From an uncultured Oscillospiraceae bacterium (GTDB taxonomy: Bacteria > Bacillota > Clostridia > Oscillospirales > Ruminococcaceae), in contig CAZAOY010000002.1 in assembly GCA_964486925.1 (NCBI GenBank), forward strand, positions 14,226-78,225: a stretch of DNA of 64,000 nucleotides, read 5' to 3'. The notes below the pieces were generated by a model. It ran no database searches and was not told where the DNA came from. It was given only the letters and a program-made list of their open reading frames with translations. Shown in pieces: positions 44,140 through 45,600 of this stretch. Within the stretch, counting starts at the first letter, position 1. Each line of letters begins with the position of its first letter. The position numbers were made by a program, and so were the translations under genes.

Positions 44140-45600
44140 ATGCCAAACAATTCTTTACAGTTAACTTTAACAGGAGCAACCAATGTTCTTGCAGGCGCAA
44201 ACGTACTGTTTAACAATATAATCTATTCTGTAGGTGGCATTAGCTATAACACCGGTACTGGTGTTATGACCTTTGCAAACCCTGGACAGTATGTGTTTAA
44301 CTGGTGGGTTGATACCGAAAGCAGTATGTCTGTGACTGGTGTTAACTTTGCTATAACAACCTCACAGGGCGACTTTGTACAAGGGGATTCTCCTCTGATT
44401 ACTGGTCAAGTTTCAGGTGTTGCAATTATCGATATCACAACTCCAGGTGAAACTGCACAGCTAATTAATGCTACACCAAACGATGTTGCGTACTCAACTA
44501 ACGTTCCGATTCAAGCAAGCCTTGCAGTATTTGAAAGTGAAGTGGGTGCAACTGGTGCAACTGGTGCAACTGGTGCAACTGGAGCGACTGGAGCTACAGG
44601 AGCAACTGGTGCAACTGGTGCAACTGGTGCAAACGGTGCAACAGGTGCAACTGGCGCAACAGGAGCAAACGGTGCAACCGGTGCAACTGGAGCAACTGGT
44701 GCTACAGGTGCGACTGGTACTAAGGGTGCTACTGGAGCAACTGGAGCGACTGGTGCTAAGGGTGCGACTGGAGCAACTGGTGCTACAGGTGCGACTGGTG
44801 CGACTGGGGCAACTGGATCAACAGGAGCAACTGGGGCTACTGGTGCAACCGGTGCAAACGGTGCAACAGGATCAACAGGAGCAACTGGTGCAACTGGTAC
44901 TACTGGTGCTACTGGTGTTGCTGGTGCAACTGGTGCAACTGGAGCGACTGGTGCGGCTGGTGCTACCGGTGCAACCGGTGCAACAGGGTCAGCTGGTGCA
45001 ACCGGTGCAACCGGTGCAACTGGTGCTAACGGAGCAACTGGTGTTACTGGTACAACTGGTGCTAAGGGTGCTACAGGTGACACTGGAGCAACTGGAGCTA
45101 CTGGTGCAACTGGTGCAACAGGTGCAACTGGTGACACTGGGGCAACAGGAGCAACAGGTGACACTGGTGCTACCGGACCTGCATTTAACTCATTCTTAAA
45201 TGCAACCAAGACAGCTGACCAAGCGGTTATCCCTGTTGGTGACGTTATTACCCTAGACACCGTAGCTATTACAGGCTCTGACCTAAGCTACGATTCCGGC
45301 ACAGGGTTATTTACTATCCTTACAAGCGGAACCTATGTAATCGACTGGGATTTCTCTGTTACTCCTGATCTAGGTACAACTGCGCTAGAGGTTGACATGA
45401 ACCTATTCCCTGGTGCTGTATTTGTTGAAGGTATTGCAGTTTCATCGTTAATCGATATGCTTGTTGGTACTATGACAGTGTTTGCCGCTACAGCTGGCGA
45501 CACCTTTGGATTTATTAACGGTTCAGACGGTACTGTAAGCGTGCTTACTACTGCCGCTCCAGGTCCTATCGGAACTGTTGCAATCTTTAGAATTGCTTAG
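44140..45600 (+). CDS. Collagen-like (G-X-Y) repeat protein, BclA/exosporium-type, with globular domains at both ends
   Basis: 486 aa with RBS AAGGAGAG. A 135-aa N-terminal domain, 213 aa of uninterrupted G-X-Y (mostly GAT; nt 44545-45183), and a 138-aa C-terminal domain. The N and C domains share a motif ([25 protein letters not shown] versus [25 protein letters not shown]). Confidence 0.85.
44545..45183 (+). repeat. Coding 9-nt/3-codon periodic repeat (GGTGCAACT-type)
   Basis: 639 nt of GGN-GCN-ACN-type triplets. This produces the long spurious ORFs in the other frames and on the other strand. Confidence 0.95.

Follow-up and report, generated by a model that had tools for sequence, protein, structure and literature searches.

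The collagen-like gene and its stalk

The locus described here lies in a window of 64,000 nucleotides (nt), the whole stretch of DNA that was analysed, from an uncultured Oscillospiraceae bacterium (assembly GCA_964486925.1, contig CAZAOY010000002.1). It contains an open reading frame (ORF; 44140-45600, plus strand) coding for a collagen-like protein of 486 amino acids (aa), in which an N-terminal domain of 135 aa is followed by 71 G-X-Y triplets and a C-terminal domain of 138 aa (Table 1); the two end domains are called the N head and the C head below, and the tract between them the stalk. An earlier note, made from the sequence alone, had described a collagen-like protein with two end domains around about 70 G-X-Y triplets; the ORF and this layout were borne out, and both peptides quoted in that note were found in the translation. 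The absence of a signal peptide, also claimed there, agreed with our inspection of residues 1-25 (no predictor was used): none was evident, and residues 5-11 form the first beta strand of the modelled N head. No LPXTG motif, SLH domain or other surface anchor was evident in the 486-aa protein.

The stalk was found to encode G-X-Y triplets only and to be dominated by GAT (52 of the 71 triplets), as had been proposed. Its threonine richness was also confirmed, with this residue in 60 of the 71 Y positions and alanine in 59 of the 71 X positions. There are one proline and six charged residues in the whole tract, which would be about 61 nm long if triple-helical. At the nucleotide level, Tandem Repeats Finder reported a 9-nt unit, GGTGCAACT, in 69.6 copies (44545-45170). 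The figure of 71 triplets is the count in the assembly, in which short reads may have collapsed the repeat; a second collagen-like gene of the same genome broke the assembly inside its GAT tract.

This second gene is split between two contigs within the GAT repeat, at C16:2-412 (minus strand) and C48:1-417 (plus strand), where C followed by a number designates a contig of the genome. Its N-terminal half comprises a charged 90-aa region ending in RCHCCGVCCC and followed by GPR, GPT and GAT triplets, and the probable C-terminal half holds a head of ~130 aa without a match to any Pfam family.

Table 1. Features at the collagen-like gene, with positions counted in the window
Feature	Position	Strand	Evidence or remark
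Terminator-like hairpin at the 3' end of the upstream pgsA-like gene	43598..43641	+	20-pair stem, then T run
Repeated hairpin module 1 in the 556-nt leader	43677..43744		blastn against own genome: copies of 79-92% identity on C36 (three in tandem), C26, C78, C3 and C2
Repeated GC-rich hairpin module 2 in the leader	43779..43829		blastn copies of 84-88% identity: C2:79948-79993, C2:99840-99886, C2:100529-100576, C26:15030-15078
Sigma-K-type promoter motif ACATAAGTGTATGCTATATCATAAACTA (AC-N17-CATAnnnTA)	43924..43951	+	216 nt upstream of ATG; about 0.02-0.03 expected by chance in the region
Ribosome-binding site AAGGAGAG	44124..44131	+	Read from sequence; ends 8 nt before ATG
N head, aa 1-135; C1q/TNF/BclA-C-type jelly roll	44140..44544	+	AlphaFold2, Foldseek, homology to the N domain of C. 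sporogenes BclA
Collagen-like stalk, 71 uninterrupted G-X-Y triplets (residues 136-348)	44545..45183	+	Triplet count; Pfam Collagen, E 1e-32
C head, aa 349-486, plus stop codon; C1q/TNF/BclA-C fold, other subfamily	45184..45600	+	AlphaFold2, Foldseek, identity
Intrinsic terminator-like hairpin at the collagen gene end	45651..45688	+	16-pair stem (8 GC pairs), T-rich tail

Fold and mutual relation of the two heads

The AlphaFold2 monomer models of the two heads were both all-beta sandwiches, with a predicted local distance difference test score (pLDDT) of 89.6 for the N head and 88.6 for the C head. When these models were compared by Foldseek with the Protein Data Bank (PDB), the top match of both was the F-BclA head 9H38 (template modelling score, TM, 0.84 for N and 0.86 for C; E about 1e-10), followed by Bacillus anthracis BclA (1WCK and 2Z5W; TM 0.76 for N, with 1WCK, and 0.81 for C). 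Many gC1q and TNF-ligand structures matched both heads at TM 0.66-0.77, the value for gC1q being about 0.7 for the N head, and the C-head model matched the exosporium anchor proteins ExsFA/BxpB at TM 0.72-0.73. The comparison with the BclA C-terminal domain and with C1q folds, suggested in the earlier note, gave the same fold for both heads, and not two unrelated ones. Sequence searches pointed in the same direction: 9H38 was the best PDB match of both heads (E 4e-4 for N and 7e-5 for C; identity 20-24%), and the N head aligned with the NC1 domain of collagen X over residues 17-119. Pfam C1q (PF00386) matched the whole protein with 25.8 bits against a cut-off of 23.7, a score summed from two partial stretches which stayed below the cut-off when taken by domain (17.2 and 13.5 bits), and Pfam BclA_C (PF18573) matched the C head weakly (19.1 bits, E 0.0012, cut-off 38).

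A three-residue linker joins the last strand of the N head (residues 124-132) to the first collagen glycine, Gly 136, and the first strand of the C head starts three residues past the last triplet. According to these models, each chain carries a TNF/C1q/BclA-C-type jelly-roll head at both ends, with linkers of only 3-5 residues. The N and C termini of each chain are found at the trimer base in C1q and BclA heads of solved structure; if this also applies here, both heads could sit base-to-stalk, giving a dumbbell.

The relationship between the two heads, which the earlier note had proposed from a shared motif, was recovered by BLASTP (E 1e-5 over that motif), by tblastn of the N domain against the genome (C domain 27% identical over N residues 5-121, E 3.6e-4), and by a profile of 25 N-domain relatives, which matched the C domain of the same protein at E 1.8e-8. 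This last value is preferred to that of a profile-profile comparison (E 2e-29), which overstates the relationship, its second profile holding heads close to the N family. The same note had suggested an internal domain duplication. The kinship of the heads upheld one part of this suggestion, and a recent copying within the gene was rejected: with only 27% identity between them and a phmmer E value of 1.7e-4 in the local sequence set, the two heads belong to different subfamilies, and the nearest relatives of the C head occur in another architecture. Other N heads share 40-66% identity with the N head, which in the local set also matches the second head of further two-headed proteins of the family (E 1e-13 to 3e-21). 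For the C head, an identity of 50-51% was found with heads in P0002 and P0003, two Clostridium sp. proteins built of a short collagen tract, a head, a short collagen tract and a second domain (BclA_C-like in P0002, a different and unassigned C-terminal domain in P0003). Judged by these comparisons, the two heads are old paralogous modules of different subfamilies that were combined in one gene.

A family of proteins with the N-terminal head

When 1.84 billion representative proteins were searched exhaustively with HMMER for the N head, 608 clusters were returned at E <= 1e-3, 287 of them at E <= 1e-10. This profile search was needed, as a word-index homologue search with the same domain gave no match, not even to its own protein. 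In nearly all of the best 150 matches of the 608 clusters the domain stretches from the first residue to about residue 134, with 0-104 G-X-Y triplets and, beyond these, a variable C-terminal region coming after it. At least 14 of these 150 contain a second copy of the head, with or without collagen between the copies, and two contain three. The full-size N-terminal domain had been presented in the earlier note as a departure from classical BclA proteins; it turned out instead to be the hallmark of the family, which includes C. sporogenes BclA (see below). No dedicated Pfam or NCBIfam model matched the N head in our scans, in which it gave a weak Pfam C1q match only, and of the ten family clusters whose names were first looked up one was a "hypothetical protein", one (P0026, Lacrimispora sp.) was named after its peptidase G2 domain and eight were nameless.

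The C-terminal modules were surveyed with Pfam in the 41 collagen-bearing members whose C-terminal region is at least 90 aa long. BclA_C was found in 15 and C1q in 17, and single members carried Peptidase_G2 (P0026) or a YNCE-like beta-propeller. In two members, P0073 and P0094, the C-terminal region is long and, on visual inspection, beta-helix-like; Pfam returned no beta-helix family for it.

A single-protein scan for related loci yielded one ortholog only. This full-length ortholog (L003; 474 aa, 67 triplets) is encoded in a metagenome-assembled genome labelled Defluviitaleaceae, among different neighbour genes, and is 60% identical to the window protein in the N head and 76% in the C head. 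In the 12 family loci that were examined the genes were all chromosomal and non-phage, and two of these loci had paired GT2(-TPR) glycosyltransferase genes directly downstream, an arrangement that can be compared with the bclA3-sgtA pair of Clostridioides difficile.

Three further loci showed particular arrangements. The region 5295-11711 of L018 (ENA ERZ27268922, contig k141_36757) is a spore-surface-like cluster. It encodes two N-head collagen proteins in a row, of 430 and 468 aa and with different C-terminal heads, along with two GT2(-TPR) glycosyltransferases and a C1q-like head of 131 aa that stands alone; the gene call at 5295-6053 is probably a wrong frame of a further collagen gene. 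Region 2370-5382 of L012 (G320:C14) codes for an 801-aa family member with about 200 G-X-Y triplets, directly upstream of which lies a small gene in the classical orientation, with a short collagen tract and a family head at the C-terminal end. The same classical orientation, with the family head at the C terminus, was found in a 311-aa collagen protein of L013 (8316-9251; G089:C8), whose genome, from the Clostridia, has 0.9 Mb, is rated 100% complete and still encodes SpoIVA.

Relation to known collagen-like proteins

The closest characterised homolog of the window protein is BclA of Clostridium sporogenes, the sequence of which is printed in the supplement of Janganan et al. (2016; PMC4942563) and corresponds to cluster P0071 among the family matches. 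Over 133 aa this sequence shares 47% identity with the N head (BLASTP, E 4e-33), and the family profile matched it at E 7e-33 (hhalign). C. sporogenes BclA is a collagen-repeat protein of the high-molecular-weight bands of purified exosporium, detected by mass spectrometry; it was identified by an N-terminal peptide, and its "large N-terminal domain" was remarked upon (PMC4942563). Spores of a bclA deletion mutant are reported to lack the hairy nap of ~100 nm, and a BclA-CTD-like fold (CTD, C-terminal domain) was predicted for its N-terminal domain by AlphaFold3 (preprint 10.64898/2026.09.03.749163). Because of this homology to an exosporium BclA, the N-terminal head can be read as the signature of a Clostridium-type BclA. 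Together with the C1q/TNF/BclA-C fold of both heads, this agreed with the BclA-like character that had been claimed for the protein.

Both proteins come from spore-forming Clostridia, and both (G9F2F5 fragment and WP_341393223.1 for C. sporogenes) have the homologous head of ~135 aa at the extreme N terminus, G-X-Y repeats directly after it, and neither a signal peptide nor a Bacillus-type exosporium leader. They differ in their repeats (GPQ, GAT and GIT in C. sporogenes, GAT in the window protein), in the genomic context (CsxA there, a weak CsxA-like protein here) and, above all, at the far end: the one non-partial sequence of P0071 examined (249 aa) ends in a 19-aa tail, whereas the window protein ends in a second head. 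The other members listed in that cluster are partial or of similar length. As far as these comparisons go, the window protein belongs, as a member with two heads, to the collagen-like family of the C. sporogenes BclA type, and the second complete head at the far end is what sets it apart. We regard this architecture and the homology assignment as practically certain.

With BclA of B. anthracis and B. cereus (1WCK, 2Z5W; PF18573) the window protein shares the threonine-rich collagen stalk and a C-terminal TNF/C1q-like head. B. anthracis BclA is expressed in a sigma-K-dependent manner and is glycosylated on threonine residues. It differs from the window protein in having an exosporium leader peptide at the N terminus instead of a folded head and GPT instead of GAT as repeat unit, and the C head stays below the BclA_C cut-off as given above. 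No Bacillus-type exosporium leader was found: an NCBIfam scan (E <= 1) gave matches in the collagen tract only and nothing for the N domain, and the N terminus is modelled as a folded jelly roll.

The best structural match, 9H38, whose molecule name in the deposition is misleading, is the C-terminal domain of F-BclA, the collagen-like tip fibrillum of the F-ENA endospore appendages of Bacillus thuringiensis (PMC12357932). F-BclA is likewise a collagen-like spore fibre with a C1q-like head, but it is only 20-24% identical to the heads described here and docks onto the DUF4183 pilus through a short N-terminal peptide (PMC12357932), whereas the window protein has a full head in that place. No match to DUF4183 (PF13799, the F-ENA subunit) was found in the genome, and a role as F-ENA tip fibrillum was therefore rejected. 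In the metazoan C1q collagens (C1q, the NC1 domains of collagens VIII and X, adiponectin) a collagen triple helix also goes together with a trimeric gC1q jelly-roll head, but only at the C terminus, whereas the window protein has a head before the collagen as well, joined to it by its last strand and not its first.

Links to sporulation

Upstream of the collagen-like gene, where a search for SigK- or SigE-type promoters had been suggested in the earlier note, a sigma-K-type promoter motif was found (Table 1). The pattern AC-N16/17-CATAnnnTA was searched for in the 250 nt upstream of 13 independent family genes, the expectation being derived from shuffles. Exact sense-strand matches preceded five of the 13 genes, including the window gene and its ortholog, against 0.13 expected (Poisson P about 3e-7), and antisense matches preceded none; across the whole window the motif occurred at chance frequency only. 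The upstream regions of the window gene and the ortholog gave no meaningful alignment, and the sigma-K-type motif alone was common to both. The alternative of a SigE-type promoter found no such backing, a sigma-E-like pattern being without a match in the 11 upstream regions of family genes searched.

The genome itself encodes SpoIVA (388 bits) and two sigma factors of the sigma-K/E-like type, and the two other genomes found with an N-head domain also encode SpoIVA. It further contains a gene of 263 codons (C25:16520-17308, plus strand) whose product has 19 cysteines, no Pfam match and some resemblance to CsxA, the cysteine-rich protein of the exosporium basal layer in C. sporogenes, and is a candidate for a lattice protein of the outer spore layer. 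A homolog of GT2-TPR glycosyltransferases is encoded at C48:505-1566 (E 2e-19), directly after the 3' half of the second collagen-like gene.

Transcription unit, leader and neighbouring genes

The collagen-like gene stands alone between a pgsA-like gene (ORF 43011-43583; Pfam CDP-OH_P_transf) and an EamA gene, in a neighbourhood of housekeeping and sugar-utilisation functions (CvpA-like protein, CDP-alcohol phosphatidyltransferase, EamA transporter, GH36-like enzyme). Since terminator-like hairpins flank it on both sides (Table 1), it appears to be its own transcription unit, the hairpin at 43598-43641 being predicted to shield it from upstream transcription. Nearer to the start codon a perfect TATAAT box can be read at 44102-44107; a sigma-70 promoter scan of the region gave one weak site, fewer than expected by chance, and an Rfam scan of the window gave no match.

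The long intergenic gap of 556 nt mentioned in the earlier note is indeed present (43584-44139). About 120 nt of it are made up of two hairpin modules (Table 1), whose copies elsewhere in the genome are 79-96% identical by blastn, and which are probably mobile hairpin elements. The three tandem copies on C36 lie at the contig start with a period of 80 nt. The sigma-K-type motif sits downstream of both modules.

The GC content at third codon positions (GC3) is 0.31 in the segment coding for the N head (44140-44544) and 0.34 in that for the C head (45184-45597), against 0.42-0.56 in the neighbouring genes. Combined with the family's patchy occurrence, this low GC3 suggests that the collagen-like gene may have been acquired horizontally.

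Proposed function

Taken together, these data make it probable that the window protein is a hair-like nap filament of the spore surface, of the C. sporogenes BclA kind. The product would be a leaderless, trimeric, dumbbell-shaped collagen-like glycoprotein, in which both heads trimerise, as those of all solved relatives do, and clamp the ends of the ~61-nm triple helix. Because the GAT helix is almost free of proline and charge, it would probably need both this stapling by the heads and O-glycosylation of the 60 threonines in Y positions, for which the GT2-TPR glycosyltransferase encoded elsewhere in the genome is a candidate enzyme. Transcription would occur late in the mother cell, from the sigma-K-type promoter at 43924-43951, and the protein would reach the forespore surface from the cytoplasm of the mother cell, so that no secretion signal would be necessary. 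One head would dock on the outermost spore layer, for which the CsxA-like, cysteine-rich protein is encoded, and the other would be displayed outward. As to which is which, we slightly favour a fibre whose proximal end is the conserved N head, since it is constant in the family and the C-terminal module varies as the distal end of a fibre would (C1q-like head, beta-helix-like region, peptidase-G2 chaperone domain).

Several points weigh against this proposal. The sigma-K-type motif, at 216 nt, is far from the ATG, and the consensus used is that of B. subtilis and not of this organism. The tblastn match between CsxA and the candidate lattice protein is weak (C25:16535-17299, 22% identity over 278 aa, E 4.7e-6), and no glycosyltransferase gene is adjacent to the window gene. 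The N-head family is rare and patchy: among 399 genomes from the class it occurs in three, and no clear match was found in any of the 24 other genera that make up the organism's own taxonomic family (two were borderline, at E 7e-4 and 8e-4); because of this distribution, the N-head proteins would not be a core spore component. The trimer and the dumbbell are extrapolated from relatives, the models made here being of monomers. With regard to polarity, it is the C-terminal region of C. sporogenes BclA that is expected to contact CsxA (preprint 10.64898/2026.09.03.749163). Finally, the location on the spore surface, which we hold to be likely, is deduced from homology, motif and context.

A role as a bipolar cross-linker associated with spores is a variant of this proposal and not an alternative to it. 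Partners would be bound by both heads, linking one spore to another or the exosporium to an inner layer, an extrasporal matrix or an appendage. Two heads of different subfamilies at the opposite ends of a ~61-nm spacer would suit such a task, as would the resemblance of the C-head model to the anchor proteins ExsFA and BxpB, and a part in spore clustering has been ascribed to the C1q-like heads at the tips of L-BclA and F-BclA, the ENA fibrillae (PMC12357932). However, the genome lacks the DUF4183 (F-ENA) subunit; we consider this variant unlikely.

Collagen-like proteins of the bacterial surface, such as Scl1/2, Lcl and Bacillus Clp, offer another model, in which the window protein would be an adhesin or matrix fibre of the vegetative cell, surface-bound or extracellular, which leaves the cell by an unrecognised route and has nothing to do with spores. 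NCBIfam models of Scl2/SclB, Lcl and Scl1 did match it (E 1e-25 to 7e-30), but over the collagen tract alone and with 90-104 bits against cut-offs of 325-500; membership in the Scl/Lcl adhesins was rejected on these grounds. The TATAAT box near the start codon would make housekeeping transcription possible, and the gene does lie among housekeeping and sugar-utilisation genes. On the other hand, its nearest characterised relative comes from the exosporium, family genes show an enrichment of the sigma-K-type motif in their upstream regions, and neither a signal peptide nor an anchor such as an LPXTG motif or SLH domain is evident, residues 5-11 falling within the folded head. An adhesin of this sort seems quite improbable to us.

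The least probable explanation is a collagen-like tail fibre or receptor-binding protein derived from a phage or prophage, with the N head bound to the baseplate and the C head to the host: although, at the level of the fold, collagen repeats and C1q/BclA-like heads are common in phage and giant-virus fibre proteins, the C head weakly matches the PHROG annotations "minor tail" and "collagen like minor tail" (E 0.0016-0.007), some family members end in phage-like modules (P0026, with a peptidase G2/pre-neck appendage C-terminal region) and low head GC3 and patchy distribution hint at horizontal transfer, the N head had no match in PHROG, in 50,697 phage genomes or 72,556 plasmids (tblastn) or in IMG/VR (pattern scan), so that a phage origin was rejected at the sequence level, and with the window gene alone between the pgsA-like and EamA genes under its own terminators, and no phage structural module in any of the 12 family loci examined, we hold it to be very unlikely.

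Significance

Collagen-like nap filaments shape the adhesion of spores, their clumping and their contact with the host. The way in which the nap is anchored is understood in the Bacillus cereus group only, where a short leader peptide docks into ExsF/BxpB. Clostridia are reported to have no ExsF homolog (Janganan et al., PMC4942563). The window gene, read as coding for a nap filament of the spore surface, ties an uncultured Clostridia genome to the C. sporogenes type of BclA with an N-terminal TNF-like head. In many proteins of the family the far end bears a further head or some other module.

A further idea is tentative and, in our view, rather doubtful: the N-terminal TNF-like head may itself be the anchor in Clostridia, a built-in counterpart of ExsFA/BxpB that slots into the threefold sites of a CsxA-type lattice, and the N-head family may be a modular display system of the spore surface. 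If this were true, any C-terminal module, be it a second C1q head, a beta-helix-like region, a beta-propeller or a peptidase-G2 chaperone, could be shown on a collagen stalk of adjustable length, and two-headed members such as the window protein would be bipolar connectors.

The N-head family, with at least 608 clusters, merits a dedicated domain model. It constitutes a simple system in which to study how Clostridia attach nap fibres without ExsF, and it also bears on the means, terminal clamps and probably glycosylation, by which a collagen helix with hardly any proline or charged residues is stabilised.

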